NCBI GenBank assembly: GCA_964509365.1
Contig: CAZDWN010000002.1
Location: 3,701 to 67,700 of the forward strand
Length of the DNA: 64,000 nt
Direction: 5' to 3'
From: an uncultured Pseudomonadales bacterium
GTDB lineage: Bacteria; Patescibacteriota; Microgenomatia; UBA1400; UBA12028
In this document: one piece after another, positions 10,000-64,000 of the stretch
Layout of the letters: each line of letters opens with the position of its first letter
How positions within the stretch are numbered: position 1 is the stretch's first letter
The notes under the pieces: generated by a model
Database searches by the model: none
Told to the model about the DNA's origin: nothing
The model's input: the letters and a program-made list of their open reading frames with translations, nothing else
Translations under genes and position numbers: made by a program

Positions 10000-10317
10000 C
10001 TACTCTTGAGTATCTTCATTTCCCGATAGGCTTTCCTGCATGTAACGATAGACAATTGAAATAACTTCACGGATATCGTCATTCGCATTTTTGTATGCAA
10101 GCTTATCAAAAGCGACATCCCTGAGTTCTCGAATTGGATCACTAATTAACGCATGGATAAAAGACTGTGTGGCTCCACTTATACCCTTAAAATCTAGAAT
10201 AACTTCGTCACCACTTGATAAGGCTGGCATAATTTCTTCAATTCTCAACTTCTTTGCGATGTCTTTGTTTTCTGCGAATTCTCCAACTATTTTTTTCATT
10301 TTGATACTTTTCTTCAT
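10000..10317 (-). CDS. STAS-like (DUF4325-like) small protein, partner of the upstream GHKL ATPase
   Basis: 105 aa. 'EVILDFKGISGATQSFIHALI' resembles STAS/anti-sigma-antagonist-like DUF4325 as I recall it. ATGA start/stop overlap with the ATPase gene. A+T-rich. Confidence 0.55.
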   Translation of the reverse strand: MKKSIKMKKIVGEFAENKDIAKKLRIEEIMPALSSGDEVILDFKGISGATQSFIHALISDPIRELRDVAFDKLAYKNANDDIREVISIVYRYMQESLSGNEDTQE

Positions 10318-13590: not shown

Positions 13591-13635
13591 CTGAAAGATC
13601 AGTATAGCAAAGCGCTTGCTATACTATACGGACTA

Positions 13636-14412: not shown

Positions 14413-14416
14413 AAAT

Positions 14417-45978: not shown

Positions 45979-46377
45979 ATGCGTTACAATACCCGTATGA
46001 CCTCACTCACTCAAACCTACCACATCGATGCATCAGTAGAAAACGTCTGGGATGCTCTCGTCAATCCCGATACGATCGAAGCTTGGGGTGGCGTTCCGGC
46101 GAATATGTCTGACCGACTCGTAGCGTTTACACTGTGGGATGGCGAGATTCATGGGAAAAATCTCAAAGTCGTCAAGGAAAAAGAACTTGTACAAGAATGG
46201 TACGCCTGGGATCAGTCGCTTGGTGCGTCCACTGTGACCTTTAGGCTATCTACTGAAGGAAAAGAAACAGTGGTGGAGCTCACGCAGACGAATATCCCAG
46301 AGTCGGAGTACGAAGATGTCGAAGCTGGATGGAGGAACTTCTACATGGAGCCACTGATCGAATTGGTGGAAGCGTAG
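45979..46377 (+). CDS. SRPBCC (AHSA1/polyketide-cyclase-like) domain protein
   Basis: 'YHIDASVENVWDALVNPDTIEAWGG' typical SRPBCC N-terminus. Confidence 0.65.
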   Translation: MRYNTRMTSLTQTYHIDASVENVWDALVNPDTIEAWGGVPANMSDRLVAFTLWDGEIHGKNLKVVKEKELVQEWYAWDQSLGASTVTFRLSTEGKETVVELTQTNIPESEYEDVEAGWRNFYMEPLIELVEA

Positions 46378-47141
46378 ATTGACTGCAGTTCGGTCAAGAA
46401 ATGCTCAATGGCAGGGTTGATTGTCGAAGTTAACCCTCGTTTTTCTTCAATTGGCCAGCTTGTATACGTATACAAATCACGTCCATGATACCGAAATTGC
46501 GCGTGAAGATCGTCGATCAACGATTTGATTTTGAGCGCACGCGGATCACTGTGAGGAGTCTTATCGATCATCGTGCTGATTCCATGAAACAGGCCATACA
46601 TGGCATAGTTTGTATTGCCTCGGATCTTTGACTTATCCAAGAAAGCTCTGACGATCGTCCCCAGGACTTCGTAGACCGCATCTCTATCTTCTCGGCGACT
46701 CTTATGATTGATGTCATGCTCATCAGTGATGATTGGCGAGTTGTAGTACTCGACAAGTACTTCGCACAGCTCGCTGATACGCGTCTGCGTCTTTGCTGGC
46801 AACCAGTCGACGGAATGAGGCAGTTGAATCTCTTGGAGCATGATCGGTGGATACAGTGCTCTCACTCTATGCTCTGGGCGTAAAAGTTTCTCAAGCAGTC
46901 CGAGAACCATTCGGTCAGCTTGCATCTCGGGACTATTTTGAGGGTCGACGACAAACGTAGGATCATCCAGCTGTTCATTCAGCAACTGAATCTGTTGTTC
47001 GAGATCGAGCAGAAGCGACTCGATCACTTGCGGATCACTCTCCGTAAAAATAGATGTCTTCTCAGGACTTTTAGTTTCCGATTCATCAGGTACAAAATTA
47101 CGTGTATCCATACCGTTAGCTACGTCGTTGTCGATAAATGT
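46341..47141 (-). CDS. Hypothetical protein
   Basis: Long ORF. Start ambiguous (47141, 47171 or 47273). Confidence 0.4.
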   Translation of the reverse strand, partial: TFIDNDVANGMDTRNFVPDESETKSPEKTSIFTESDPQVIESLLLDLEQQIQLLNEQLDDPTFVVDPQNSPEMQADRMVLGLLEKLLRPEHRVRALYPPIMLQEIQLPHSVDWLPAKTQTRISELCEVLVEYYNSPIITDEHDINHKSRREDRDAVYEVLGTIVRAFLDKSKIRGNTNYAMYGLFHGISTMIDKTPHSDPRALKIKSLIDDLHAQFRYHGRDLYTYTSWPIEEKRGLTSTINPAIEHFLTELQSIYASTNSISGSM

Positions 47142-47496
47142 TGCGGATGACGGCGATGCGATCAAACGCATGATCAGTTTTACTGACAAATTGTGAGTTG
47201 TCGAGATCAGAAGCGTCATCGAGCTGATCAGCATAGACGATGACTCGATCTGTGGGAATGCCTTGAGAAGCAATTTTCTCGACGTCTTGAGCTGCCTGTA
47301 TCCCAGTACTCGTCAAGATAATCATTTTGTCATTAGACCACGTCTTCGCCTGTTCTTGCAAAGCATCTTCAATCGAGTCAAATCGTTCGATGACTGCTCG
47401 AGTATTCTGAGCGGTGGCTTGCAGTTGGAGGATAAGGCTTAATGCACTGAGAGGCTTGTCGATGATGACCCAATGCTCGCGGTATTCTTCTGACAT
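47116..47496 (-). CDS. Hypothetical protein
   Basis: 126-aa ORF downstream of the GT2 gene. Confidence 0.4.
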   Translation of the reverse strand: MSEEYREHWVIIDKPLSALSLILQLQATAQNTRAVIERFDSIEDALQEQAKTWSNDKMIILTSTGIQAAQDVEKIASQGIPTDRVIVYADQLDDASDLDNSQFVSKTDHAFDRIAVIRNIYRQRRS

Positions 47497-47538
47497 AGCT
47501 GTTATGGTACCAGAATTTTACTTTCTGTGGTCGGATGT

Positions 47539-49143
47539 TTACGAGCTCGCAAATTGACTCAGTCGGATTTTTCCGAACGACTGACGCATTGTCGAACTTG
47601 CGTGCAAACGATCGATGGTATTCTCCATCAAAATCATTCCAAAGAATCCGTACATGAGAGTCGTGTTGAGCGCCGCGAGGATGAGCAGATGTGGTGCTTG
47701 ATGACCTGTCCAATTCGAGATGATGATTCCTGCTAGAGTAATACTCCCGAGGATAGCATGAGGGTAAAACAAGTGGAGTGGAGTGCTTTGACGTTGCGCT
47801 TTTCCTTTTGGCGTCACTTTGTACTGAAGTGACTTGCCGGTTATGACTTTGAAAAACGCGAGCATATAGATTGGCCAGACAGCGAGATTGAGTAGTCGTC
47901 CTCGCACGAGATAACTTGCCTCGTTCACGGGATCGATAAAGTATTGCTCGAGCCAAAGCGAGATGCCGAGTTGATACAGGAGGACGCTGCCATACAAGAT
48001 GACCATCGGGAGGACTTGGGCACTCATGGCTTCGATGCCAAACACAAAATACAAAGTAAGTAAGACGATTGCGATTCCTTGAGCGATCCCATCAAAATAG
48101 TATTGCTGCAAAAAGAAAAAGTGCAGCGCGTGTTTGAGACGCATTTTGGGGAGTATTTTTGGACTTTGCGTAAAGTAAATATGCATCAAGCCATATGCCC
48201 ATCGCATCTGCTGACTAAAGTACCCACCCCATGTAGATGGTCCCTCACCGATTGCTAAAATCTGAGGGACGTAGACGCTCTTCCATGCTTTGGTATACAA
48301 GTGCATACCGGTGAGATGGTCTTCGACGATATGGCCAGCGTAGCCACCGATGTGAGCGTGTGCTTGGGTACGCATGATGTGATTGGCTCCAATAAGGAGT
48401 AACATGTCATGCCCAAACAATCCACGTTGGATATGTCCGTAAAAATTAAATGCTTGTTCGGCTGCTCCTCTCGCAATCCAAGATTCGCTATGATTTCCAT
48501 AGATTTGGGGTGTCCCCACAAACGCTACTTTTGGATCTCGAAAGTATCCGAGTGTGCTCGTCAAGAAATGCTTGACGGGGATAAAATCAACATCATGTTG
48601 GGCTACGATATCGTACTGATGTGAGTGTGCATGGTACCAAGAGTTGAAATTCCCGCCCTTGGTTTTCGCTTTAAACTTTCCTTCAACTTGATTGTACTCC
48701 GCACGTTCTTTTCTGCTGAAGTGATAGACGCCATACCGAGCACAGATCTCTTTCGCTAATGGATCATTCCCCTCATCCAGTAGCCATGTATCATGGGGAT
48801 ACTCACAAGATACCATAGCACTCAATGCTTTCTCCAAGACTTCATATGGTTCTTTTCCAGGTACAAATGCGGTGATCATCGCGACGCGAAGACCAGCCTG
48901 CGCTTTGAGCGGGATGACTTCCTTCATCCCAGCTGCCAGATACCAAATGAAGATCTCGTTCACGATTTGATGCCAGATGATAAAACTCAAGAGCACGTAC
49001 ATGGATACTTCGATCAAGTGTCTCCAATCATTGTAGAGATGCGGGACGTGAGACGGGGCAAACCACCAGAGGGCAAAAATGAGCACTCCTAGATACCCAA
49101 AGAAGAGTATGAGTGCATATGCCATCCGAGAAGATCGGGACAT
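47539..49143 (-). CDS. Processive family-2 glycosyltransferase (cellulose/chitin-synthase-like)
   Basis: TM-GT2-TM architecture. 'LDEGND' DxD, 'VEDHL' ED, 'QQMRWAYG' QxxRW. Confidence 0.8.
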   Translation of the reverse strand: MSRSSRMAYALILFFGYLGVLIFALWWFAPSHVPHLYNDWRHLIEVSMYVLLSFIIWHQIVNEIFIWYLAAGMKEVIPLKAQAGLRVAMITAFVPGKEPYEVLEKALSAMVSCEYPHDTWLLDEGNDPLAKEICARYGVYHFSRKERAEYNQVEGKFKAKTKGGNFNSWYHAHSHQYDIVAQHDVDFIPVKHFLTSTLGYFRDPKVAFVGTPQIYGNHSESWIARGAAEQAFNFYGHIQRGLFGHDMLLLIGANHIMRTQAHAHIGGYAGHIVEDHLTGMHLYTKAWKSVYVPQILAIGEGPSTWGGYFSQQMRWAYGLMHIYFTQSPKILPKMRLKHALHFFFLQQYYFDGIAQGIAIVLLTLYFVFGIEAMSAQVLPMVILYGSVLLYQLGISLWLEQYFIDPVNEASYLVRGRLLNLAVWPIYMLAFFKVITGKSLQYKVTPKGKAQRQSTPLHLFYPHAILGSITLAGIIISNWTGHQAPHLLILAALNTTLMYGFFGMILMENTIDRLHASSTMRQSFGKIRLSQFASS

Positions 49144-50745: not shown

Positions 50746-50828
50746 ACTTGAGGATTGTGCTATGGATCACTGCAATTTCACGCAGTGATGGTAGTCTGCG
50801 GGTAGTATCTTATCTACGGAGTTTACGT

Positions 50829-51179
50829 ATGACAGAACGAATTCAAGAGAGAGTGTCCGAACCAAGTGCGGAAGTGCCAGTTACCCCATATACGATTATG
50901 CGAGCACATGGTGTGATCGTCGGCCTGATGGTCGATGTGCAAGGCATCGTGTTATCTCACGATTTAATTGATGCATATATGAAACAACGATACACTGATC
51001 AAGACATGAAAAATAAAAAAATGTTTTTGTGTCAGTGGCATGATGGAGATGCAGAGCTGAACTTTCAAGTTGTTGGAGCCGAAAATACGGATGCGGATAT
51101 GAAAGTGGCGGCAGAATACATCCGATCATGTACTTTGGTTCGAGCGTTAGCTGAAGCGGAAGCTCGATCTACCAAATAA
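50829..51179 (+). CDS. Hypothetical protein
   Basis: Start placed at ATG 50829 (the 50748 start would overlap the divergent LCP gene). Confidence 0.45.
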   Translation: MTERIQERVSEPSAEVPVTPYTIMRAHGVIVGLMVDVQGIVLSHDLIDAYMKQRYTDQDMKNKKMFLCQWHDGDAELNFQVVGAENTDADMKVAAEYIRSCTLVRALAEAEARSTK

Positions 51180-51211
51180 TTCTCCATTTTCAACGTCTGC
51201 GTTTGCGTGGA

Positions 51212-51451
51212 TCAATCTCTTTGCGGTGTTTTTTTCTTGATGTGTTCCCGGATTGCCCCACGCTTCTCGTAGCGTTCTTGTTGAGTTTGACTGGGTTTAA
51301 GATCTAGGTACAACGCTTGTAATGTTGCAAGACTCAACGTGCTCAGTTGTTCTCTCGTGAAGATTGGCTTTCCAGCGACGTCGACATGGCGTAAAAAAAT
51401 CGAGATAACAAATGCCTGGCGTGTCTTCGGCATGTACGGATGTTCTTTCAT
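51212..51451 (-). CDS. Small hypothetical protein (downstream gene of a two-gene overlapping cassette)
   Basis: 79 aa. 4-nt overlap with the upstream 89-aa ORF. Confidence 0.3.
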   Translation of the reverse strand: MKEHPYMPKTRQAFVISIFLRHVDVAGKPIFTREQLSTLSLATLQALYLDLKPSQTQQERYEKRGAIREHIKKKTPQRD

Positions 51452-51717
51452 ACGTTTGAAGTTTGTAATGCATTGAGTATCATGGCAACTCGTGCTCGTT
51501 CGGATGCGATGAATGCAGTTTCGTGTGCATCCTGCCCCCCACTTCTCGCTTCACGGGCAGTGAGTACAGCAAGATACGTATTCCAAATCGCAATTTCATT
51601 AAGCAGATGATAGTCAATCAGTGGACGCCGAATTCGTTCGATCATTTTCCGATTGTACACCACAGTGATGATCTTCGTTTTGCAGTTTAATTTTGAAAGG
51701 AGTAGGATTGTGGCCAA
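51448..51717 (-). CDS. Small hypothetical protein (upstream gene of a two-gene overlapping cassette)
   Basis: 89 aa. Divergent from the dinD-like pseudogene. Confidence 0.3.
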   Translation of the reverse strand: MATILLLSKLNCKTKIITVVYNRKMIERIRRPLIDYHLLNEIAIWNTYLAVLTAREARSGGQDAHETAFIASERARVAMILNALQTSNV

Positions 51718-52550
51718 ATGGATACCGCTCTAATTCAAATTCAAAAAAATCTAGACATGATTAAAAAAACTCAAGATGAACTTGAGTATTGGTCTGCTCG
51801 AGAACTGATGGTATTTTTGGGATATTCAAAATGGCAAACTTTTGAAGATGTACTTAAGAGAGCGAAAATTGCTTGTCAAAACAGCGACCAACCAATTAAA
51901 AACCATTTTATTGGCGCCAGTAAAATGGTCAAAACGGGATCGGGTGCTAAAAGAAATATCGAAGATGTTCTCCTCACTCGCTTCGCTTGTTATCTAGTTG
52001 CCCAAAATGGTGATCCTAGAAAGCCTCAGATTGCTTTGGCTCAGACCTATTTTGCCACACAAACTCGCAAACAAGAATTAATGCAGCAAAGAGATGAAGA
52101 AAACAAAAGACTGGATTCTCGCCTAAAATTAAAGGAAACCGAGCAAAAGATCGAGTCAACTGTCTATGAGAGAGGGATTCGATTGTCCATTGAATTTGAA
52201 CATTTAAAGATAAACATATTCGAGCTCTTTACGGTGGTATTTCGACCAAAGAACTCAAAGAGAAGCGAGGTATTCCGCTAACTCGCGCATTGGCCGATTT
52301 TGATACCGACGTTGAGTTACGAGCAAAAGATTCTGCTTTGGCAATGTCTGATCACAATATTAGACAAAAGAATCTCGCAGGGTCATTCAAATTAAATCAA
52401 GAAGTAGTTAAGAGCAGTAAAGCGACTAGACAGACTCTGCTTTCTCGTGGAATTCTGCCAGAAAAACTCAATGCACAAGAAGATTTGAGAAAAATTGAAG
52501 CGCGAAGAGTAAAAGAACTGCAAGTAGCGATTGATAAACGGATCAAGTAG
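51718..52550 (+). pseudogene. DinD/RhuM-family (DNA-damage-inducible protein D-like) gene interrupted by a frameshift near 52197..52212
   Basis: First ORF strongly resembles the DinD N-terminal/central part ('WSARELMVFLGYSKWQTFEDVLKRAKIAC...SGAKRNIEDVLLTRFACYLVAQNGDPRKPQIALAQTYFATQTRKQEL'). After a 1-nt frame change the 'LYGGISTKELKEKRG' continuation is read in the frame of ORF 52290..52550. A+T-rich. Confidence 0.6.
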
Positions 52551-52551
52551 T

Positions 52552-54015
52552 TTACTTTTCCAGATCGAGGATGCGATCGATGCGGATCTGACTGACAAAG
52601 TCAGGCACGTGCGAGATGAGGATCATCGCTCCTTGATAGTCATGGAGAGCTTTCGCGATGACTGGGAGGTGACGGAAATTGATGTGGTTGGTTGGTTCAT
52701 CCAGGATCAGGAGTCCTGGTTTTTGCAGCACGAGTCGTGCAAACGAGACCAATCCTTTTTGCCCTTCCGAGACATAGCCGATCCGAGTCTTCATCAGCTC
52801 TCCAGTGAGCAAGAATCCTGCTCCGACTGATCGTAGTTGCTGCTCATGCACCGGTTGCCCTGAAGTCTCCAGTGCTTCGACCAGTGACTCATAGATCGTA
52901 TGCTCGTAGTTGAGGGTTGAGAAATCTTGGCGGTAGTAGCCGACTGAGACTCCACTGGCGATTTTGGCTCCCGGAGATGCCCCCATTGCGATGGACTCGA
53001 TCAACGTACTCTTGCCGATCCCATTTGGACCAGCGATGAGCAAATGCTCTTTTTTCCCGAGGACGACGTGAGTTTCCTTCGTGATCTGTCGATGATCTTT
53101 CATGATCGTATAGGAGTCGATTGTGAGCACAGGACCGATGAGATCTTCTTGATAAGGGATCGTAAATGGGCGGATGGTTTTATCTTCTCGTCTGACATCG
53201 ACCATATTTTCTTCCAGCTCATCTGCTTTCTCGCGCATTTTTTTCGCTACGTTGCGCAATCGTCCGCCTTTGTGAGCGAAGTAGTTTGCTTTTTCTTTGT
53301 TCTCGATGGCTTCTTTGGTCAGTCGCGCGTTCTGGCGATTTTCCTTTTCGATTCGCGCTGCGATTTGCTCGATCACGTCAAAGTAATTGCCGACATATTG
53401 CTCTACTTTGTGAGAAAACGTATCGACGTAGAGCACTCCTTCGGTAAATGCATTCAAAAAGTCAGCGTCGTGAGAGATGATGAGCACCGATTTCTCATAA
53501 GTGATCAAAAAATTCATCAGATGAATAATTCCTGCCGGATCGAGATTGTTGGTCGGTTCATCGAGTAATAGCAGATCTGGATTCTGGATGAGTGCGGCAG
53601 CGAGCAAGAGTCTGGCTTGTTGACCACCCGAGAAGTCTTTGATTTTCTTATCGACAGGCGCGTGGAGATTGACGACTTCGAGGACCGCGAGGATCGCTCG
53701 ACGAAGTGGTGAGTCACGGAGGCCCGAGTATTTTTGAAAATACGCTTCGACCGAAAGTTCGAGATCATCGAGCGCCATCACTTGCCTAGCGGTCGCGACT
53801 TTCATGCTTTTATCGATGGAGATCTCGCCGGATTCTGGGCGGATCTCACGAGTCATGAGCTTGAAGATTGTGGACTTCCCAGCTCCATTTTGTCCCATGA
53901 GCGCGATTTTCATGTTTTGGCGCATGGAAAAATTCACCTCATCCAAGATGATTTTATTGAATTCAAACCGATGGGTCACGTTTGTGAAACGGACGATTGT
54001 GTCGTTTGCAGCCAT
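52552..54015 (-). CDS. ABC-F family ATPase (second paralog)
   Basis: Walker A 'GQNGAGKST' and 'GPNGIGKST', signatures 'FSGGQQARLLLAAAL'/'VSEGQKGLVSFARLVL', charged linker. Start at 'MAANDTIVRF'. The longer start at 54105 is possible. Confidence 0.8.
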   Translation of the reverse strand: MAANDTIVRFTNVTHRFEFNKIILDEVNFSMRQNMKIALMGQNGAGKSTIFKLMTREIRPESGEISIDKSMKVATARQVMALDDLELSVEAYFQKYSGLRDSPLRRAILAVLEVVNLHAPVDKKIKDFSGGQQARLLLAAALIQNPDLLLLDEPTNNLDPAGIIHLMNFLITYEKSVLIISHDADFLNAFTEGVLYVDTFSHKVEQYVGNYFDVIEQIAARIEKENRQNARLTKEAIENKEKANYFAHKGGRLRNVAKKMREKADELEENMVDVRREDKTIRPFTIPYQEDLIGPVLTIDSYTIMKDHRQITKETHVVLGKKEHLLIAGPNGIGKSTLIESIAMGASPGAKIASGVSVGYYRQDFSTLNYEHTIYESLVEALETSGQPVHEQQLRSVGAGFLLTGELMKTRIGYVSEGQKGLVSFARLVLQKPGLLILDEPTNHINFRHLPVIAKALHDYQGAMILISHVPDFVSQIRIDRILDLEK

Positions 54016-54079
54016 AACTCTTTCTTGAGGGAAAAAATAAGCACACAGGTGAGCTGTTATTTTACCACACGTAGCGATG

Positions 54080-54292
54080 TCACTTGTCTTCCATGTGATT
54101 GACAATTGCTTGGCCGAGCGAGGATCCTGATTTTTTCAGATTCTTGAGTGCCCAGTGATAGTCCGCTCTAGCATCTTGAATGATAGCCTGATCGGAACCT
54201 AATAGAATCACCTCCAGGAGACGTTGGACACTTAAGGCCAGAGCTGCTTCTGCTTCGAGCGCCTTTGTACTTGGATCCTTTTCATGTGACAT
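54080..54292 (-). CDS. Small hypothetical protein between the 659-aa gene and ABC-F
   Basis: 70-aa ORF, helical. Co-oriented in an apparent operon. Confidence 0.35.
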   Translation of the reverse strand: MSHEKDPSTKALEAEAALALSVQRLLEVILLGSDQAIIQDARADYHWALKNLKKSGSSLGQAIVNHMEDK

Positions 54293-54325
54293 AATGCACC
54301 AATTCTATCACTTTGATTGACCTTT

Positions 54326-56305
54326 TCATTTCTTCATATACAAGGCTTCAAGCTCACGATGCGATACGATTGCAAACACAGAAGCATTTCCTTCTAAGCC
54401 GTTTTCTTGCGCCAAAATTCGAAAGTTCTTGTCATATCGAATTGCCCACACTGGGTTACCCGGGTTGGGTCCGGCGATGCGCGAGTAGACTTTGACGACA
54501 CAGCCACCTCTATTTGCACGGTCGAGTGTCGCTTTGAGTCGCGACGGACTCACTTCCGCTTTACTACTCACAAAATTCAATGGAAATTCAAACTGCGGTC
54601 GATAGCGCGACTGCAGGATTTGTTCCTCAAAAGAATGAGGAGCGTTCTCAAGTGCATGTGCATTTTTGTCGCGCTGCGACCTTGCCGTTTTTGGTGACTT
54701 CATCTGCTCTGGCCCTTTTGGCTTAATTTTATGGACCGAAATTGGGTTGGTGTATTCTTTGGACTGCGTTTTTGATTCTTGACGATTCGACGTGATTTTT
54801 TTGGCGTTGAGTTTGAGGATGTTGGCGACGATCCCTGCGAAGCAATTTTCCAAGAATTCATCTTCTCGCTCGTCGTCAATGACACGAAGATAGATTTTTG
54901 GAGGGTCCATGAAGAGGTCAAGTGCGACCGTCATTTCGGTAAAACCCGCGGCTTTGAGAGGCTCGGATGGCGAATAATTCTCTACTGCGTTGCTATCATG
55001 TACGAAGAATATTTGAAAATAGATTACGTCATCTATTTTCTTTGCCTGAGTCGTCAAACGCTCCGTGGGTATTTTTAATCCGGAGACGCCGACGTCGAGC
55101 AGCTGCGTCGATTTATGTGATAATTTGAGTTTTTCGACATTGGTGCGCACTTCATCCCAATCGACGGGATCTTCCTTGTCTTCAGGATCAAAGTATTTCC
55201 GCATTGCGTCTTTCGTAATGACGATCATATCGGTCTGGTTTTCAAAAAACACTCTGATGTGAGCCGCAATGTTTGAATAGAGAGGGTTTGGACTGTCGGC
55301 TGCAATTATCGTCACTGATCGATACAGCGAGGCAATATCCAAATCAAGGTGAACTCCTCGAAGTGCGGCTCCTCTGGCGATAAATTCATACCATTCATCT
55401 TCATTGAGAGTAAGTGACGTTGTATGGACAAGGGAATTCAGAAGTTTGACTGCATCTTCATGGCGAGGATCATCGTCGTCCATCAATGAGCCATAGGTTT
55501 GCATGATGATGTTTTCAAAGAGCAAATAGAGTTGTGTGGCCAGAGATTTCTCTTTTGACTCTGCGGAATGTCGTTTCAATACACTGAGTGCTTCATTTTT
55601 TGGCGCGAGTAAAAAGGTTTTCAAGAAGTTTGTGAGTGTTGGTGAAGCATTTGTTTGCAGGAGGTGTGTGAGGAGTTCGGCAACTCGTTTGTATTGATCG
55701 ACGGACTCAGTGTCATCGCCAATTTTTTTTCGTGCTTCACTCGATAGTATGTCGTATACCCCAAATATTTCAGAGAGTTTCTTCGGTTGGCCAAGTTCAT
55801 GCGAAAGTTCACGAACAGGGATCTTCGTCCACTTTGGCATTTGATAGATGATGGCGTCATCTAGTGCATTCTCAAATTGTTGATGCAATTGAGACAGGAG
55901 TGCAATTCCGCTTTCGGCAAATGACACTGAAGATGCGAACGATTGCATTTCCCATTCAAAGGTCTGATAGTCTTGCTCAATGGCTGGCTTATCATCAAGA
56001 TTGAGAGTGTGGCGCCTGGCTGTAACTTTTTGAAACGATAAATAGGATTTGCAAAATGCTGTAGCGAGATTGTTGACGTTGAGGATGTTTCGTTTTCGCA
56101 CTGCTTCCATGAATAGCGCATTCACATTTGTCGCCGATTGGATCTCAGCATCTGCTTTTGCTTTCTGATTTGATGCAAATTGTATGGCAGCTTCTTCTTT
56201 CGTTGTCTGGTCAGTGAGTGTGAGCACTCGGTTCTCAGATTTGCCACCGAGATTTTGCTCGGGAAAAGATTTAGAAGGATCGAAGTGTAACCGTTCGTTT
56301 GCCAT
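54326..56305 (-). CDS. Large hypothetical protein with RelE/YoeB-like C-terminal ~60 aa
   Basis: 659-aa ORF. C-terminal 'VWAIRYDKNFRILAQ...ASVFAIVSHRELEALY' resembles the YoeB 'FWSRRITEEHRLVYAV...LLIAACRYHY' core. The rest is unassigned. Confidence 0.6.
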   Translation of the reverse strand: MANERLHFDPSKSFPEQNLGGKSENRVLTLTDQTTKEEAAIQFASNQKAKADAEIQSATNVNALFMEAVRKRNILNVNNLATAFCKSYLSFQKVTARRHTLNLDDKPAIEQDYQTFEWEMQSFASSVSFAESGIALLSQLHQQFENALDDAIIYQMPKWTKIPVRELSHELGQPKKLSEIFGVYDILSSEARKKIGDDTESVDQYKRVAELLTHLLQTNASPTLTNFLKTFLLAPKNEALSVLKRHSAESKEKSLATQLYLLFENIIMQTYGSLMDDDDPRHEDAVKLLNSLVHTTSLTLNEDEWYEFIARGAALRGVHLDLDIASLYRSVTIIAADSPNPLYSNIAAHIRVFFENQTDMIVITKDAMRKYFDPEDKEDPVDWDEVRTNVEKLKLSHKSTQLLDVGVSGLKIPTERLTTQAKKIDDVIYFQIFFVHDSNAVENYSPSEPLKAAGFTEMTVALDLFMDPPKIYLRVIDDEREDEFLENCFAGIVANILKLNAKKITSNRQESKTQSKEYTNPISVHKIKPKGPEQMKSPKTARSQRDKNAHALENAPHSFEEQILQSRYRPQFEFPLNFVSSKAEVSPSRLKATLDRANRGGCVVKVYSRIAGPNPGNPVWAIRYDKNFRILAQENGLEGNASVFAIVSHRELEALYMKK

Positions 56306-56406
56306 AGAAAGCCAATAACTAAATGACAGCAGATTATATCACGCCTCGAGTGAATGGAGTGTATTCTTCGATGGCCATGCCCTCTAGTTTCAGCTAGAAT
56401 AGCCAA

Positions 56407-57627
56407 ATGAAGCGAAGTGAGAGTGACCAGTTGGCATTTGATTTGGAGCCTGAGTTCTCAGTCTCAGAGTTTTTAGATCTCCTCAATGGGACATTTGGTG
56501 CTCGTGAGTTTACGGTCATCGGTGAGATCGCGGAGGTGAATGTCCGCGGCAAAGCAGTGTACATCAAGCTCAAAGACAAAGCCGATGGTTCGACGCTGGA
56601 GACGATCCTATGGACGTACAATGCGCGTCGACTGGGTTTTGATCCGACGGAAGGACAAGAAGTCAAAGTCGTCGGCAAAGTACAGATCTACAAGCCGTAT
56701 GGCAAACTCTCGCTGATCATCTCGCATATCTCACCACTGGGTGAAGGTGCTCTCAAAGCTGCTTTTGAAAAACTCAAAAAAGATTTGGAAGCTCGAGGAT
56801 ATTTTGATGAAGCTCGCAAACGCGAACTTCCAGCATATCCCTCACATATTGGATTGATCACCTCGCGGATGGGTGATGCGCGCAAAGATTTCCTCACGCA
56901 TTTAGCTCCATATTGGATTCGAGTATCGTTTTTGGATGCACGAGTAGAAGGAGTGAGTGCCATCGATAGTATCGTGAGTGCACTACATGAGTTCAATCGT
57001 CTTCCCGCGTCAGTTGATTTGATTGTCCTCACACGTGGTGGCGGCAGTATCGAGAGTCTCCAAGCTTTCAATTCCTACGAAGTAGCTCAAGCTATTTTTA
57101 GTTCTCGGATCCCTGTCGTCTCAGCGGTCGGGCATGAAAATGATATTACGATCGCGGACCTCGTCGCTGATGTGCGAGCCTCCACACCGACGCACGCGGG
57201 TCAGCTGGTCAGTCGTGGCTATGTGGATGCTGCGAGTGAGTTATCTTTGCTGCACGCTCGTCTGATCAACAACTTCGCATCACTGCTCTCCAATTTCCGA
57301 TTGACGACAGAGATGTTTACGCGCAATAGCACGGCCATTCTTCGCACGGTCCGTGACAAACAGCAGCAGTTGCTCACTCTCTCTACTCGGCTTGATTCAG
57401 ATATTCGCATGACATTGACTCGGTCGTTAGAAAGACTAGAGGCCCAAGCGACCTTACTTGATTCCAATGATCCCGAGAAGAAAATATCGCAAGGATATTC
57501 GATCGTCCGTGACAGTTCTGGCCATGTGGTCAAAGATCCGACACAGCTTCGAGCCGATGATATACTCATGCTTCGCATGAAACAGGCAGTGGTCAGTACA
57601 CAAGTATCCGAGGTAACGCCGCTATGA
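56407..57627 (+). CDS. xseA: Exodeoxyribonuclease VII large subunit
   Basis: N-terminal OB-fold 'REFTVIGEIAEVNVRGKAVYIKLKD', central catalytic region, C-terminal coiled-coil. Confidence 0.85.
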   Translation: MKRSESDQLAFDLEPEFSVSEFLDLLNGTFGAREFTVIGEIAEVNVRGKAVYIKLKDKADGSTLETILWTYNARRLGFDPTEGQEVKVVGKVQIYKPYGKLSLIISHISPLGEGALKAAFEKLKKDLEARGYFDEARKRELPAYPSHIGLITSRMGDARKDFLTHLAPYWIRVSFLDARVEGVSAIDSIVSALHEFNRLPASVDLIVLTRGGGSIESLQAFNSYEVAQAIFSSRIPVVSAVGHENDITIADLVADVRASTPTHAGQLVSRGYVDAASELSLLHARLINNFASLLSNFRLTTEMFTRNSTAILRTVRDKQQQLLTLSTRLDSDIRMTLTRSLERLEAQATLLDSNDPEKKISQGYSIVRDSSGHVVKDPTQLRADDILMLRMKQAVVSTQVSEVTPL

Positions 57628-57917
57628 AAAATATGCACGTCAATTTCACCGATGCGATGAAAGAGCTTGCTGAGATCAATGCGTGGTTCGCCCGCTCCGA
57701 TATCGATTTGGATGAAGCGATGGAGAAACTCAAGCGAGGTAATTTTCTCATCAAAGAATGTAGGAAGAAACTTGTCCAAGTGGAAAATGAGTTTGAAGAG
57801 ATTCAAAAAGACTCAGTGGATGAGTCTGAAAGTACCGTGGACGCCACCATCGTCATTGCCGCAGAGTCGGATACCAGTGATGTTACTGCTGATTCCGCGG
57901 ACGACATGCCGTTTTAG
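57624..57917 (+). CDS. xseB: Exodeoxyribonuclease VII small subunit
   Basis: 97-aa helical protein with ATGA overlap to xseA. 'FEDAMKELAEI...LDEAMEKLKRGNFLIKECRKKL'. Confidence 0.8.
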   Translation: MKNMHVNFTDAMKELAEINAWFARSDIDLDEAMEKLKRGNFLIKECRKKLVQVENEFEEIQKDSVDESESTVDATIVIAAESDTSDVTADSADDMPF

Positions 57918-58378
57918 CGACTCAAAATTGCAATTCTTCGCAAGTGTTCTTGTAAGAACGGGTCAAGATACGTTGAAAGCGTGCCATCCTCATTTGTAGT
58001 TACACCACTTTTGAGATGTGTTCCCTTCATATCTTCATTGAGAAGTTGTGCCCGCATGATGCAGAGTTGGTCATAACAGTCTTGGTGAAACCTTAATTTA
58101 TCTTCAGGCGACATGCCATTCGCATTGAATTCAGGGTGTAGTTTGCTGATGCGGCTCTCCAAATATGCTATTCGCGCGTCAGTGTGTGCGATCAAGACTC
58201 CATTTTGAGCTTTGTGAAGGAGCATGTTGGCATTTGGATTCGGAAGAGCTGAGAGTTTTTCATCCAAGTCTTTTGCGACCATGCTGATTTTTAAGAGTCC
58301 AGAAAGTTCTTGCAACATTGATTCCATTTCATCAGATTGAGCGTGTTCATGGTTTGTCATATCTTCGGATTGTATCAC
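57914..58378 (-). CDS. Hypothetical protein, distal gene downstream of hsdR
   Basis: 154-aa ORF. 4-nt convergent overlap with xseB. Confidence 0.45.
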   Translation of the reverse strand: MIQSEDMTNHEHAQSDEMESMLQELSGLLKISMVAKDLDEKLSALPNPNANMLLHKAQNGVLIAHTDARIAYLESRISKLHPEFNANGMSPEDKLRFHQDCYDQLCIMRAQLLNEDMKGTHLKSGVTTNEDGTLSTYLDPFLQEHLRRIAILSR

Positions 58379-58384
58379 CAGTCA

Positions 58385-58633
58385 CTAGCTTTGATCCGCG
58401 GTTTCCAAGATTGCCAATCCTTTCGCGACGATCTCAGCGAGCGCGATCGTCTCGGTGCGCTCCACATCCGTGAGCAGATCCAGTTTCGGCCAGAGTTTCT
58501 CGACTTTGTCTCTGATCTTGTAGATATCATCACGAAATTCATCCCGAAGTTCTTTCGAGTCTTGGAGCTTTTTCATGAACTTCACGACATCCTTTTTGTC
58601 GCTCGTGCTCAGATCCACATTTTTTTTTGGCAT
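58385..58633 (-). CDS. Small hypothetical protein 23 nt downstream of hsdR
   Basis: 82-aa charged helical ORF. Confidence 0.45.
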   Translation of the reverse strand: MPKKNVDLSTSDKKDVVKFMKKLQDSKELRDEFRDDIYKIRDKVEKLWPKLDLLTDVERTETIALAEIVAKGLAILETADQS

Positions 58634-58656
58634 AGTTCAAAGCGAAGACGTTACCT

Positions 58657-61569
58657 TTACTTAAATTTCTTAATAACTACATCAACTAGTCTGTTTAGTA
58701 ATTTTGGAAATACCGTAGCATCAACCGAATCTTTGTAATTTTTAAGGAGCACTTCCTGAATTGTCTGCTTTATTGATTTTATGAACTCTTCTCTCTTTGA
58801 AGAATTTTGCCAGTTCGTATCAAGATTTGCGTTCAACTCATACGTTAGTGTATGAGTAATATCACCAAGTTTTTCGTCTTTCTGATCTGTAATGAACTCT
58901 TGTAAAAGTCTAAAAATACCCATCTCTTGCAGAGAAAAACCTAATGCCTTGGCCTCCTCATGTTTAGTTTTCATGTCGTCGAGCAGGTGATAGTATCGTT
59001 TAATCCGTTCAGATAAATCGATTTGCTGTTTTTCAAACTCTTCCTTAATCACTGCCAGCCGTTCACTAAATTTTAAGAAGCTTGGATCAGAATCTATCTG
59101 TATACGAAGTTCATGTTGAATAATTCTTTCTAATTGGATTGCTTTCTCTTCCTGAGAATCATTGGTCAATTTGTTTAAGACATAAATATCGTTGACCGTA
59201 AGTTCTCTGAAATTGCGTGTAATTCCTTCATAATCAATCTTATCCTGAATGATTTTCTTCACTTTTTCTCCATATTCAGCGAGTATTTCGTTATCATTTT
59301 CTGGAGATCTGTAGGTTTTCACAAACGCAAGATAAAAGGATGTGATCCACTCGAAACGTCGCAAATACGGAAGTAAAAAAGGGTCAGGAGACAAAATCTC
59401 ATAATACATGCGCAAGGAACTATAACGGTCAACAAAGTAATTTTGTTTTTGCTCATTATCCGAAAAGATCTTGAGCGCTCGACGAAGATTTTCCATCGAA
59501 GGATCTTCTATCGAGATAGTAATAAAGAGCTCCATTACTTGATCAATAGTTTCTGAAAATTGATCCTTTATTTTGGCAATGTTGACCAATGCAGCATCGA
59601 CGATACTCTCATCAAAGTTTAATGAGTCGTATAGGTTTTTTGTTATTCCATAATAATCAATTATTCTTCCACAACCTTTATTGGGGTAAACTCTGTTTGT
59701 TCTTGCTATCGCCTGAAGCAGATTATGATCGCGTAATGGTTTATCGAGGTACATCACTTGTTCAATAGGGGCATCAAAGCCAGTCAGTAACATATCGCAC
59801 ACAATCAAAAATCGAATTGAGCCTTGTGCATCTTTAAATCTGGAGATGATATCCTCACGCTCTTGTTTGCTTGTGTGATGCAGCTTGAGGTCTTCATTTT
59901 CAGTATTGGGATCACCCGGGGAGTAGACTACTACTGACCACTCTGTGGGGATCAATGTATCGAGGAGTGATTTATACTTTGCTGCAGATTCGCGATCGTA
60001 GCATACGAGCTGCGCTTTAAATCCATTTGGCTCCACATAGAGTCTAAAGTGCTCGACAAGATCTTTCGCAATTGTTTCCATCCGCTTGTCAAGTTTTATT
60101 AGCGCTGCTTTCTTGCCATATTTTCGCATGAGTATGTCTTTTTGCTCTGAGGACAGATCAGTTGTCAGTGAATCGAACTGCTCGTCTACTTTTTGCTCAT
60201 CAATCGAAAACTTCGAAAGCCTGGCTTCATATGTCACAGGTAATGTTGCTCCATCGTCAATCGCCTGCTGGATGGAGTAATAATCTAAGTATCTTTCTCC
60301 GACCTCTCCAAAATTTCTATGAGTATTGAGTGTTGTTTTGTCTATTGGAGTACCCGTAAATCCAAAGAAAAATGCATTGTGCATGGAAGATCTCAAATGG
60401 ATGGCTGACACTCCTTCGTTGTCACGATGTGCTTCATCAGACAGTACAATAATATTTTCATTGTGATTCACTATAGTGCTGCTCAATTCACTAAATTTCT
60501 GAACAGTTGAGATAAATATTCCACGCTGCGGACTTTGAATCTTTTGTTCCAGGTCTTTCCTAGAGGTCACGCGAATTACATTTTCGCCACCGCAATGAAT
60601 GAACGTGTCGTGTATCTGATCGTCGAGATCAATGCGGTCGACAAGGACGAACACTTTTGGATTTTTAAGCTTTGGGTCAAAACGCAGTTTCCACGCTGAA
60701 AAAAACATAGTGAGGCTTTTTCCTGATCCCTGAGTGTGCCAGATTAGTCCTTTTCTTTTCTCGCCATTTTGAACTCGTTCCACGATTTTGTTGGTTGCTC
60801 GTACCTGCTGATATCTAGCGATCTTCTTCTCTTTTCCAGTCTTGGTTTTCTCAAAGACAATGAAGTTATCGATGAGATCAAGCACATTTTTCGGATCCAA
60901 TAACGAAAAGAGTGTCATCTCCAAAGATCCTCCAAGGTCGGTCTCGAGTTTCTCATCTTTCCACTGTAAAAACGACTGAAGTGGAGCGTATGTAGCGCCA
61001 TACATTGTTTGCAGTCCATCTGTGGCAATGTTGAAACAATTTGGCAGAAAGAGGCGTGGAGCATTTTTTTCATATCTCTTCAGTTGACCGACAGCGAGTG
61101 AGTAGTCGACGACTATACTGGCTGTCGGACTTTTCGCTTCGATATCGACGACAGGTATGCCATTGATGAAGACGAGAATATCTGGGCGTATGTTTTCTAG
61201 CGTCCCTTCAAAATAGAACTGGTTGGTGATCACAAACCGATTGTTGCCTTGCTTTGCCACGTCGATGACACGGTAGTCTTGCATCTTCCCCGTTTGCTGA
61301 TTCTTGATATTAATGCCATCACGAAACAATTTGAGAAAAGACTCGTTGCTGTCGATCTTTCGAATTTCTCGCAGCACACTGGCTGCCTCATCGTCATCGA
61401 TGGCATTGATTTTTTTGATTGCGTCAGTCAAATGAGAGGTTATGAGTAATTCATTCTCAAATTCACGAAGTTTTGAGAACTGTTCTGGTGGAATATACTC
61501 ATACCCCAGCGTCTTTGTGAGGAACTTGATGATATGTCTCTCCACTGTATATTCTTCGTTAAATTTCAT
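58657..61569 (-). CDS. hsdR: Type I restriction enzyme R (endonuclease/helicase) subunit
   Basis: 970 aa. N-terminal nuclease region. SF2 helicase Walker A 'HTQGSGKSLTM', 'LSDEAHR' DEAH box, helicase C-terminal motifs. A+T-rich. Confidence 0.9.
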   Translation of the reverse strand: MKFNEEYTVERHIIKFLTKTLGYEYIPPEQFSKLREFENELLITSHLTDAIKKINAIDDDEAASVLREIRKIDSNESFLKLFRDGINIKNQQTGKMQDYRVIDVAKQGNNRFVITNQFYFEGTLENIRPDILVFINGIPVVDIEAKSPTASIVVDYSLAVGQLKRYEKNAPRLFLPNCFNIATDGLQTMYGATYAPLQSFLQWKDEKLETDLGGSLEMTLFSLLDPKNVLDLIDNFIVFEKTKTGKEKKIARYQQVRATNKIVERVQNGEKRKGLIWHTQGSGKSLTMFFSAWKLRFDPKLKNPKVFVLVDRIDLDDQIHDTFIHCGGENVIRVTSRKDLEQKIQSPQRGIFISTVQKFSELSSTIVNHNENIIVLSDEAHRDNEGVSAIHLRSSMHNAFFFGFTGTPIDKTTLNTHRNFGEVGERYLDYYSIQQAIDDGATLPVTYEARLSKFSIDEQKVDEQFDSLTTDLSSEQKDILMRKYGKKAALIKLDKRMETIAKDLVEHFRLYVEPNGFKAQLVCYDRESAAKYKSLLDTLIPTEWSVVVYSPGDPNTENEDLKLHHTSKQEREDIISRFKDAQGSIRFLIVCDMLLTGFDAPIEQVMYLDKPLRDHNLLQAIARTNRVYPNKGCGRIIDYYGITKNLYDSLNFDESIVDAALVNIAKIKDQFSETIDQVMELFITISIEDPSMENLRRALKIFSDNEQKQNYFVDRYSSLRMYYEILSPDPFLLPYLRRFEWITSFYLAFVKTYRSPENDNEILAEYGEKVKKIIQDKIDYEGITRNFRELTVNDIYVLNKLTNDSQEEKAIQLERIIQHELRIQIDSDPSFLKFSERLAVIKEEFEKQQIDLSERIKRYYHLLDDMKTKHEEAKALGFSLQEMGIFRLLQEFITDQKDEKLGDITHTLTYELNANLDTNWQNSSKREEFIKSIKQTIQEVLLKNYKDSVDATVFPKLLNRLVDVVIKKFK

Positions 61570-61571
61570 AG

Positions 61572-62420
61572 TTACTTCTTTTTCTCAAGTAGCTTCTTCA
61601 TCTTATCAGTAAACGTCTTGGCCTTACTTTTTCTAGTTTGAATTTCCTCTACGAGATAGATCAAAATATTTTTAATATTATCTGCTGACTCCAAACATTC
61701 TTCGTCTGTTCTATTATGGAGCCCATCGCTCAATGATGAATGTAGGAGCTTTAGCGGATTGTTGCCATTAGGCTGTAAGGATGTTGGAAGAAGATCTTGG
61801 ACTAGTTCGATCTTTTGTTCGGCAACTCGAGTTTTTTTGACTTGATCCAGTGCATCTTTATATTTTCCTTTGTCTTCCTCATCAATAAGATCCTCGACGG
61901 ATATTAGAAGTTCGTCTATTATCTTTTCGGTAATTTGTCGGAAGTATGCATACGCACCGATTCCATAACTCTCTGATTCGCAAACGAGCCCTTTCTTGTA
62001 AAGGTCGGCATGCTCACCGAGCGTCTTTTCTAGTTTTGGGTCCATGTCTATTTCCCACTGAGGTGTTTGCCCAATTTTTTGAACGCTGCCACTGTAATAA
62101 ATGGTGCCATTCTTTTCAGCTTTAGTCTTTAGTGAAAATAATACGTAGAAGTGATAAAAATAGGAATTACAGGCCGAACACAAATACCTCATTCGTATAG
62201 GAACTCCCCAAACATCAATAGTTTTAGCTCCATATTCATTTGATGCAAGGATCTCCCAGATTTCGTTACTTATATTAAACGTTTGGACGGAACCACAACT
62301 CTTGCAGTACATATTAATTGCAGGGGTGGATATGTCATCGAGCTGCGTATTGTAGTAAGGCTCATCGACTTTTAGCTTTCGATAAAGTGGATACGTTTCT
62401 AAAAACTCTTTTGTGATCAT
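61572..62420 (-). CDS. Hypothetical protein embedded between hsdS and hsdR, with N-terminal CxxC...CxxC zinc-finger-like motif (possibly DUF4145-like)
   Basis: 282-aa ORF overlapping hsdS by 4 nt and 2 nt from hsdR. 'CKSCGS...CSACNS'. C-terminal region reminiscent of DUF4145 accessory proteins of R-M loci (recollection, uncertain). Confidence 0.55.
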   Translation of the reverse strand: MITKEFLETYPLYRKLKVDEPYYNTQLDDISTPAINMYCKSCGSVQTFNISNEIWEILASNEYGAKTIDVWGVPIRMRYLCSACNSYFYHFYVLFSLKTKAEKNGTIYYSGSVQKIGQTPQWEIDMDPKLEKTLGEHADLYKKGLVCESESYGIGAYAYFRQITEKIIDELLISVEDLIDEEDKGKYKDALDQVKKTRVAEQKIELVQDLLPTSLQPNGNNPLKLLHSSLSDGLHNRTDEECLESADNIKNILIYLVEEIQTRKSKAKTFTDKMKKLLEKKK

Positions 62421-63559
62421 ATGTCTGCCTTTCTCCCAAATATCTCTTTCATAATTCCTGATTTTGTATTCCTCAGTGTAAATTGAGCTTTCCTTTCCAA
62501 CTCGATCTTTTGATCCAATGTATATAAAAGGTCGGCGATTTTCTTCTGTTCCTCAATGGGTGGAAGTGGAATTTTGATCTTCTTAAAAAATGATAAGCCA
62601 ATGGTTTTTATCGTGGAACCCGATGCTATTTGCTCAAAAACTGGCTTCCTGTGCTGAAGAATGTAATAAAGGAATAGGTTGTTTAACCTTTCTCCACACC
62701 TCCAGGCAATGAAATGCTGGCTAACTGCCATTGGTTCAGTTGTTATTGCACTTTTTCCAATACCGGCATCCCTAGATAAGACGACAACCCCTTCGGGATG
62801 CATAACTGCAGAAGAATGCTCAATCCCTTCCTGAGAAATCTGCTTTGATGTCTGTGAAATGTATACCCGGTCGAGTCTAAAGGTGTCTGAAAGAGATATC
62901 CACTTAATTCCTCCATTCCAATAATTTGGAAATGTTTTATTTGGAGTATGACCACTCCCTCTTTTGGCAACGTGATCTAATAATTCAACTTCCCAATTTT
63001 CAGGAATACTGCCAATCTCAGTTTTCTTAAAATCTGTATGCCCAATGCCTTTGGTCAAAAGTTCCTGCATCAAGCCTTGCTTTAGTTCTTCTGTCTTTTG
63101 AATAGTTTGATCTGTGATGCTAATGGCGTTATCAACGATTTCTAATTCACTCGCGATTTTCTTCTGTACACTACGTGCGGGGAGTGAAATCTCTAATTTA
63201 TAAACATCATCCCTGTTAAGTCCAGGTACACCTGTCCCTCGATTCATCTTGCCTAGCTCGAGTGTTTGGAGCATGAAATAAATCCATTTAAGATCCACCA
63301 TATCACTTTCAGTAATGTAGTAGGTGGTATCAATCGGCCAAAAAGGTTCGTCAGACCATTCAAGCTTTCCTATACTCCCTTTTCTACCGACAATTATTCC
63401 TTTTGTGTTTACAAGACTATTTCCATTCGTCCCTACGATTCCATTAGAGCCATATACAGGAATATCTCCAGGAGTCCTTTTTTGGGAAGGCAAATTCTTA
63501 CCATATTCAAGTTTTAAGATGTCTCCAATTTTTATCTTTTTCAAATTTTGAGTTGACAT
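62417..63559 (-). CDS. hsdS: Type I restriction-modification specificity subunit
   Basis: 380 aa with two target-recognition domains separated by a conserved helical spacer ('LKQGLMQELLTKG') and a C-terminal conserved helix. Confidence 0.85.
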   Translation of the reverse strand: MSTQNLKKIKIGDILKLEYGKNLPSQKRTPGDIPVYGSNGIVGTNGNSLVNTKGIIVGRKGSIGKLEWSDEPFWPIDTTYYITESDMVDLKWIYFMLQTLELGKMNRGTGVPGLNRDDVYKLEISLPARSVQKKIASELEIVDNAISITDQTIQKTEELKQGLMQELLTKGIGHTDFKKTEIGSIPENWEVELLDHVAKRGSGHTPNKTFPNYWNGGIKWISLSDTFRLDRVYISQTSKQISQEGIEHSSAVMHPEGVVVLSRDAGIGKSAITTEPMAVSQHFIAWRCGERLNNLFLYYILQHRKPVFEQIASGSTIKTIGLSFFKKIKIPLPPIEEQKKIADLLYTLDQKIELERKAQFTLRNTKSGIMKEIFGRKADI

Positions 63560-63563
63560 AGGT

Positions 63564-64000
63564 TTAAGTTTCTTCGCCGGAATAGAGTTCGACTGTTTCG
63601 TGCAACTTCTTCACTCTACTTTTTGCGCCTGAAATACCATCAAATGCTGGGAGTTTCTCAGGCATGGTGCCACCGATCTCTTGGATGGCTTTGCGCACTT
63701 GCCTCCCGACTTCAAAGTGCGTTTGATTTGCTCTCGCCTCACCCTTGATGTTTTCTCGTTTAAGCTTGGCATCTGCTTGTGTTGCGCGAAACAAATTGGC
63801 AGCAAGTTCTTCGCTGCCCATGTGGTCGAGTATGCCTTGACTCTTTTTCAAACCTTTTAATGTATGGATATCCTGCGATGTGAGCCCTGCATACAATCCT
63901 TTGTATCCGTAATTGGTAAAAACACCGTAGTTTTTGACACCTGCTCTGCTGGCAGTCTCCGCAAGATGTTTGTTGTGTGCGGTAATCTCATCGCGAAGCA
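63564..64000 (-). CDS. DinD/RhuM-family protein, 3' part. The gene continues beyond the window end
   Basis: Translation upstream of the tabulated ORF stays open to the window edge. 'LRDEITAHNKHLAETASRAGVKNYGVFTNYGYKGLYAGLTSQDIHTLKGLKKSQGILDHMGSEELAANLFRATQ...THFEVGRQVRKAIQEIGGTMPEKLP' closely parallels the E. coli DinD C-terminal half as I recall it. Confidence 0.7.
   Translation of the reverse strand, partial: LRDEITAHNKHLAETASRAGVKNYGVFTNYGYKGLYAGLTSQDIHTLKGLKKSQGILDHMGSEELAANLFRATQADAKLKRENIKGEARANQTHFEVGRQVRKAIQEIGGTMPEKLPAFDGISGAKSRVKKLHETVELYSGEET

Follow-up and report, generated by a model that had tools for sequence, protein, structure and literature searches.

The region from 51.7 to 64 kb of the 64,000-nucleotide (nt) window analyzed here, by which we mean the whole stretch taken from contig CAZDWN010000002.1, is probably a mosaic in which a conserved backbone is interrupted by three separately variable slots, holding a decaying standalone dinD gene, an orphan gene (orf659), and an imported Type I restriction-modification (R-M) operon that contains a second dinD gene. 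This reading draws on observed gene identities, a single-base deletion, synteny, base composition, and the dissimilarity of the two dinD copies. It differs from that of an earlier note, which had taken the same region for a single accessory and defence island of ~12 kb bracketed by two inverted DinD/RhuM-family genes. The descriptive part of that note stands. Two inverted DinD-family open reading frames (ORFs) were found by ORF listing and by the NF008573 profile at 51718..52550 (+, hereafter the proximal copy) and 63564..64000 (-, the distal copy), the first A+T-rich and the second more G+C-rich (G+C content [GC] 0.38-0.39 vs 0.468). The genes between them are those it had listed (ABC-F, a 659-amino-acid [aa] ORF, xseAB, two small ORFs, hsdR, and hsdS), to which we add one that it had not mentioned, orf282. 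The frameshift that it had placed near 52200 was located at 52198-52203, where 1 nt is missing relative to an intact ortholog.

Synteny and base composition

Two related metagenomic lineages were available for comparison, one represented by L003/L004, which carry the intact DinD protein P0008, and the other by L017, from a contig of 138 kb; relatives of this lineage occur in samples ERR2985262 and ERR14064714/5. In L003/L004, the genes run PD-(D/E)XK, AHSA1, and LCP, with further genes between these, followed by ORFs of 106, 69, and 61 aa, an intact dinD, and ABC-F. This order is collinear with 44.2-53.7 kb of the window at 67-90% amino-acid identity, and the collinear intact dinD places the proximal copy at a conserved, orthologous position. 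In L017, LCP (72% identical) is followed by a 110-aa ORF and ABC-F, with no dinD, and the interval between ABC-F and xseA holds 160-aa and 206-aa ORFs and a homolog of a small gene that we call orf82, after which come xseA and xseB. Past xseB, at the site that the R-M operon occupies in the window, L017 carries an unrelated 282-aa ORF, an Mrr-like nuclease, a pair of M78 peptidase and helix-turn-helix genes (CapP/CapH-like), and small ORFs, with the Mrr and CapP/CapH-like genes at 12958-14524, and then a PIF1/RecD-like helicase, PAP2, and G6PD, these last three being likely backbone; neither orf659 nor a Type I R-M system occurs in L017. Their conservation in L017 marks ABC-F and xseAB as backbone, on either side of which gene content varies independently.

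Base composition divides the region along similar lines. Against a gene background of 0.479 +/- 0.037, the low-GC outliers are the proximal dinD (0.38-0.39) and the genes hsdR, orf282, and hsdS (0.384-0.395), with z values of -2.2 to -2.7, and ABC-F, orf659, xseA, xseB, and orf82 have native GC. No tRNA gene was found beyond 17.9 kb of the window, and general family profile scans returned no integrase or recombinase match in the region. The best named matches of XseA are to Patescibacteria/Candidate Phyla Radiation (CPR) bacteria.

A standalone dinD gene probably broken by the loss of one G

The proximal copy matches the DinD profile in two frames. Frame 0 (51718-52281, ending at a stop codon at 52279-52281) aligns over residues 7-162 with NF008573 positions 8-169 (9.6e-60), and the -1 frame from 52203 to 52550 continues with positions 170-275 (2.4e-20). 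The two pieces score 202.4 and 73.1 bits and together span positions 8-275 of 288; their sum exceeds the curated NF008573 cut-off of 242 bits, and each piece taken singly falls below it. The N-terminus is a Bro-N domain (PF02498, 6.9e-10, residues 21-111), the sole Pfam match of either dinD copy, and the PADLOC model PDC-S13 also matches the gene (2.5e-63).

DNA alignment with L003/L004 locates the lesion at 52195..52203 (+), where one G has been lost from a glycine codon, so that the ancestral TTT GGN ACA reads TTT G-A ACA in the window. Here the window has GAATTT-GAACATTT and the orthologous DNA of L003/L004 has GAATTTGGGACATTC, leaving the window 1 base short at 52198/52199; over 52190-52210, the form with the deletion is TTTGAACA and that with the G kept is TTTGGAACA. 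Putting a G back after 52198 yields a 277-aa ORF that contains EFGTFKDKHIRALYGG and regains the family consensus, which in the homolog alignment reads EFGTFK(D/N)KHIxALYGG across the break. A search with the repaired protein returned more than 7000 single-frame homologs of ~278 aa, the best of them P0008, which is intact and 73% identical. Nonsynonymous divergence (dN) from this ortholog is 0.164 in the C-terminal part, past the frameshift, and 0.212 in the N-terminal part; synonymous divergence (dS) is saturated, which leaves dN/dS without value for this gene. As the C-terminal part is no more diverged than the N-terminal part, the lesion is either very recent or an error of assembly.

The second of these options, that a sequencing or assembly error hides a gene that is intact and functional in the organism, is the strongest of the alternatives that we weighed, and we consider it unlikely though deserving of serious attention. 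It would account for the even divergence on the two sides of the break and for the undamaged state of the remainder of the gene, in which one G suffices to restore a 277-aa ORF with all invariant family residues. However, the deletion sits in a run of only 2-3 G residues, not in a long homopolymer, and the assembly is not indel-prone, given that all five backbone genes comparable with L017 (LCP, ABC-F, xseA, xseB, and orf82) align as single tblastn segments over essentially their full length and that simple ORF picking gives a coding density of 92%. The gene is, moreover, dispensable in this lineage, being missing in L017. Unless the missing base is an artefact of assembly, the proximal dinD is best read as a dispensable standalone accessory gene that has just been inactivated.

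The earlier note had further suggested that this copy may be left over from an R-M or other defence cassette, which the surroundings do not bear out: no remnants of hsdM, hsdS, or hsdR were detected around it, and its ortholog is standalone, as are five of six sampled homologs of the proximal type, among them a copy flanked by rpsG and fusA and a tandem pair. In the remaining homolog, L099, the order is hsdR-dinD-hsdM-x-x-hsdS. On the CPR-like metagenome contigs L097/L098, the proximal-type dinD inserted between rpsG and fusA lies at 5001-5837, and the tandem pair of 277-aa dinD genes, seen in another lineage (L005-L012), adjoins a DUF2779 gene.

A second dinD gene next to Type I R-M genes

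The distal copy (63564..64000, -) comprises the C-terminal 144 codons of a DinD-family gene whose N-terminus lies past the end of the window. Though partial and cut at the window edge, it matches NF008573 positions 141-276 over 63564-63998 (3.8e-45, 154.4 bits), and among PADLOC models it is matched by PDC-S13 (4.7e-49) and by the Specificity_I fusion model (1.1e-43). Only 4 nt separate its stop codon from the hsdS start at 63559, on the same strand. This hsdS (62417..63559, -) encodes a Type I specificity subunit (PADLOC Specificity_I, 1e-87); the product has two target-recognition domains, with PF01420 matching in two stretches (2.9e-49), and the gene contains an internal conserved repeat of 38 nt, D1. 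Beyond it lie orf282 (61572..62420, -; GC 0.384), an uncharacterised gene with two CxxC pairs that matches phrog_25239 (6.7e-42), and hsdR (58657..61569, -; GC 0.395), which encodes an apparently intact restriction subunit of 970 aa (TIGR00348, 1.3e-163) with HSDR_N, SWI2_SNF2, T1R_D3-like, and T1RH-like_C domains and so has both an N-terminal nuclease and a superfamily 2 helicase. The spacing from dinD through hsdS and orf282 to hsdR (a 4-nt gap, a 4-nt overlap, and a 2-nt gap) indicates one operon, in which the distal dinD would be cotranscribed with the R-M genes. Promoter-like sites in the promoter scan were at the level of shuffled sequence, and a modest excess of terminator-like sites was of no help in delimiting operons. 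No hsdM was found in window positions 1-64000 by tblastn with three HsdM queries, and this gene presumably lies directly upstream of the distal dinD, past 64000.

Comparable arrangements occur elsewhere. Among 72 metagenome loci with a distal-type DinD, 21 had at least 2 kb on both flanks, and Type I genes lay within 6 kb of dinD in 6 of these 21. One of the 72 loci, L025, has the order hsdM-dinD-hsdS-hsdR with a DinD 68% identical to that of the window, and L026 has hsdM-hsdS-Shedu-dinD-hsdR. Together with published fusions and a PADLOC specificity-subunit model that carries a DinD N-terminus, both discussed below, the order in L025 bears out the earlier suggestion that the distal gene belongs to a Type I gene run. 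The closest relative of the distal DinD (81% identical) is a standalone gene in a CPR-like genome, L021. None of three inspected plasmid records with dinD (H12, H5, and H6) had hsd genes nearby, the neighbors being toxin-antitoxin, insertion-sequence, or partition genes. As a separate observation, L026 (157-5611) carries a Shedu nuclease and dinD together between hsdS and hsdR of one Type I locus.

The distal dinD is best read as a passenger riding in an imported Type I R-M operon. Rather unlikely, in our judgment, is a history in which this gene was resident and an hsdS-orf282-hsdR cassette, possibly orphaned or with its hsdM elsewhere, was inserted beside it. Such a history would fit the sharp drop in GC from dinD (0.468) to the adjoining hsdS (0.387), a step that hints either that the R-M operon is chimeric or that dinD was resident and the cassette beside it imported; it would also fit the standalone state of the closest homolog and of the majority of DinD homologs. 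It fits less well with a spacing of only 4 nt between dinD and hsdS on the same strand, with the recurrence of the order hsdM-dinD-hsdS-hsdR in L025, or with the intact hsdS and hsdR, which imply a partner hsdM that is found nowhere else in the 64 kb.

The two dinD copies are distant paralogs

A further claim of the earlier note was that the two dinD copies, as inverted homologs, could mediate inversion or cassette exchange, and for this it had called for their alignment at the nucleotide level. Nothing aligned, either by blastn (word size 7) or by BLASTP; the copies share ~19% amino-acid identity in a multiple alignment, and their homology is visible only through profiles and such alignments. 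The repeat search found no inverted-repeat arms linking 51.7-52.6 kb with 63.5-64 kb and no boundary repeats. The copies, having neither DNA similarity nor inverted repeats, offer homologous recombination no substrate, whether for inversion or for cassette exchange. The family label needs amendment as well: the DinD part is upheld by NF008573, but neither copy matches PF13310 (Virulence_RhuM) at E <= 0.01, with a tool by which true RhuM genes in L013 and L021 scored 2.4e-99, so that "DinD/RhuM" conflates distinct families. The two dinD genes are thus best read as distant paralogs with separate histories.

These results leave little room for a ~12-kb defence island delimited by a pair of inverted DinD/RhuM paralogs, of which the proximal one would be an R-M relic, and we regard this account as very improbable. 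It has in its favor that two inverted genes of one family do stand at the ends of a region that holds defence genes, and that both DinD subtypes are found in Type I R-M loci elsewhere (L025 and L099). However, its interior includes ABC-F, xseA, and xseB, which are conserved in L017 and have native GC, and composition deviates in two blocks only. The dinD genes are not brackets either, as the proximal copy occupies a conserved core position, where it is intact in L003/L004, and has no hsd remnants beside it; for this copy, a core placement of the kind that the earlier note had itself counted against its model is thus observed. To this are added the lack of shared DNA and repeats between the copies, of a recombinase gene in the region, and of a RhuM domain.

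One more explanation concerns the proximal copy. A canonical -1 slippery heptamer, T_TTA_AAG (52203-52209, +), occupies the zero frame at the very point where the frame switches, and we judge this to be a coincidence. Programmed -1 ribosomal frameshifting at U_UUA_AAG, by which an X_XXY_YYZ heptamer placed where the homology changes frame would give full-length DinD, was rejected as scarcely credible, because the homologs are single-frame, the orthologous DNA is one base longer and lacks the heptamer (TTC AAA G), the slipped product would read EFEHLK in place of the conserved EFGTFK with the invariant F163 replaced, and no downstream RNA structure was predicted (z -0.39).

A proposed history of the region

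We propose that a backbone of LCP, ABC-F, xseA, xseB, and orf82, in what is probably a Patescibacteria/CPR genome, has been broken by three slots. The first, between LCP and ABC-F, would hold a standalone dinD inherited from an ancestor shared with the L003/L004 lineage; this accessory gene is probably in the course of being lost, inactivated here through one missing G and gone in L017. The second, between ABC-F and xseA, would hold the orphan orf659 and a 70-aa ORF. The third, past xseB and orf82, would hold a Type I R-M operon of low GC, acquired horizontally and read on the minus strand, with the putative order (hsdM)-dinD-hsdS-orf282-hsdR, in which the distal dinD would be a passenger cotranscribed with the R-M genes, as is the case elsewhere in bacteria.

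Several points weigh against this history. The comparison comprises two related lineages, of which L017 alone spans xseAB and the downstream side, and any claim of a hotspot rests on these. The side of xseAB on which orf82 is found differs between the window and L017, a rearrangement for which the proposed history has no explanation. The 1-nt deletion is known from the assembled sequence alone. The distal dinD has a native-like GC unlike that of hsdS and a standalone closest relative, such that the operon may be chimeric or its dinD resident, not imported. Finally, the window stops inside the distal dinD and so shows neither the N-terminal part of that gene nor hsdM nor the far boundary of the R-M block.

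Relation to known systems

DinD of Escherichia coli is SOS-induced and inhibits postsynaptic RecA filaments, according to the work of Uranga et al. (2011) as it is cited in PMC10602874 and PMC4849656. Both window genes fit the DinD profile (NF008573/PRK11525) to which that protein belongs, the proximal copy has a Bro-N domain, and the C-terminus of the distal copy is ~53% identical to it. The E. coli gene is standalone, LexA-regulated, and chromosomal, whereas the window copies, read from DNA sequence, are in one case frameshifted and in the other placed in an R-M operon. By analogy, DinD in this genome may bind DNA through Bro-N and take RecA filaments apart, or it may be an accessory defence factor.

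The embedding of DinD in Type I R-M loci, or its fusion to their genes, has been published before. Btr190I of Bibersteinia trehalosi has a functional hsdS to which dinD is fused (PMC4996451), coding sequences with a dinD domain have been listed between Type I core genes (PMC9881135), and a coding sequence in which dinD and RhuM are fused has been reported (PMC9881135). The PADLOC Specificity_I model (PDLC03083, 717 aa) has a DinD N-terminus. The window resembles these loci, and L025, in that dinD stands directly upstream of hsdS within an hsd run, but differs from the fused cases in that the two are separate ORFs 4 nt apart and in that orf282 lies between hsdS and hsdR. RhuM (PF13310, often found with Fic) is likewise a common passenger of hsd operons, and in L013 and L021 RhuM and dinD genes are a few kb apart, but it is a distinct family that neither window gene matches. 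Both copies are strong matches to PDC-S13, which is a computational candidate system in PADLOC; a literature search for "PDC-S13" found no paper mentioning it, and we know of no defence phenotype for it.

In the prr locus, the Type Ic R-M system EcoprrI carries the embedded anticodon nuclease PrrC, and it provides a conceptual model for guarded second-line effectors. The window shares with it the nesting of a non-R-M gene in a Type I hsd operon; DinD and orf282 have no sequence relationship to PrrC. It is a speculative and rather doubtful extension that dinD and orf282 (a putative zinc-ribbon gene) act as PrrC-like back-up effectors, held in check by Hsd and freed by a phage anti-restriction protein, and that the site downstream of xseB is a hotspot at which defence systems are swapped in this little-studied Patescibacteria lineage. 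The homologs of orf282 are hypothetical proteins encoded on Leptospira plasmids (with Shedu, ImmA/IrrE, and Rpn genes nearby) and by Rhizobium phage TRX32-1. Relatives of orf282 were present in none of the 72 DinD loci and none were found in viral contigs, and a search with it against PDB sequences returned only noise.

Similar gene names at two ends of a region do not make it an island, and the present analysis corrects an over-interpretation of that kind. If the deletion is real, the proximal dinD is a clean case of very recent inactivation of a gene through a single base, and the distal locus is a CPR/Patescibacteria case of a known pattern, in which accessory genes sit within Type I R-M operons. 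These are matters of little importance beyond annotation; should it be true that DinD or orf282 is a defence or anti-recombination factor tied to restriction, such loci would help to define the coupling.

orf659 and the flanking genes

In the product of the orphan orf659 (54326..56305, -; GC 0.447), a helical N-terminal region (~520 aa) is joined through a linker rich in Lys and Ser to a conserved C-terminal domain (~100 aa). Three homologs were found among 1.8 billion representatives, the closest of which (28% identical) lies in L016 in a conjugative-element-like context, with a VirD4/TraG-like gene, Replic_Relax, Fic, and a YafQ toxin-antitoxin pair as neighbors. An AlphaFold2 model of the C-terminus (54326-54630) had a pLDDT of 76.6, and its top Foldseek matches in PDB were RelE, YafQ, ParE, and YoeB (E 0.03-0.5, best 0.033; TM-score 0.43-0.51), none reaching E <= 0.001. 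The profile of this domain gave nothing significant against PDB sequences, the catalytic residues of RelE/ParE are not conserved over four orf659 homologs, and a single-sequence AlphaFold model of the whole protein was unusable (pLDDT 33). The predicted C-terminal fold is thus weakly RelE/ParE-like, and the label "toxin-like" that the earlier note had given to this gene is plausible but unproven. A 70-aa ORF downstream of orf659 (54080..54292, -), with no family matches and no L017 homolog, could be its partner.

Of the backbone genes, ABC-F (52552..54105, -; NF000355, 3.4e-92; GC 0.484) encodes an ATPase 87.5% identical to its L017 ortholog and 84.5% to that of L004, and its true start is probably the ATG at 54018. 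The exonuclease VII genes xseA and xseB (56407..57917, +; GC 0.493 and 0.456), whose homologs carry the Pfam domains Exonuc_VII_L and Exonuc_VII_S, are 82% and 69% identical to those of L017. They are followed by a 154-aa ORF (57914..58378, -) with no family matches and no L017 homolog, and then, at the inner edge of the low-GC R-M block, by orf82 (58385..58633, -; GC 0.478), a small conserved gene 79% identical to L017 9717-9965. In L017, orf82 lies directly upstream of xseA; in the window it is past xseB and adjoins hsdR.

On the other side of the proximal dinD, between LCP and dinD, three small fast-evolving ORFs of 143 aa (+), 79 aa (-), and 89 aa (-) occupy 50748..51717. By position, they are the counterparts of the 106-, 69-, and 61-aa ORFs of L003, and only the first keeps similarity to its counterpart (24.5%, E 4e-5). 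Further upstream, between AHSA1 and LCP, 46341-49143 (-) holds two ORFs, of 310 and 534 aa, the longer of which by look resembles family-2 glycosyltransferases. L003 and L017 have just one gene of ~175 aa at this place, which points to a fourth variable slot, upstream of the region discussed here. Three more low-GC genes in the window (0.365-0.398, z -2.2 to -3.1), at 10000-11282 (-), 14366-15325 (+), and 32558-33325 (+), may be additional horizontally acquired genes.

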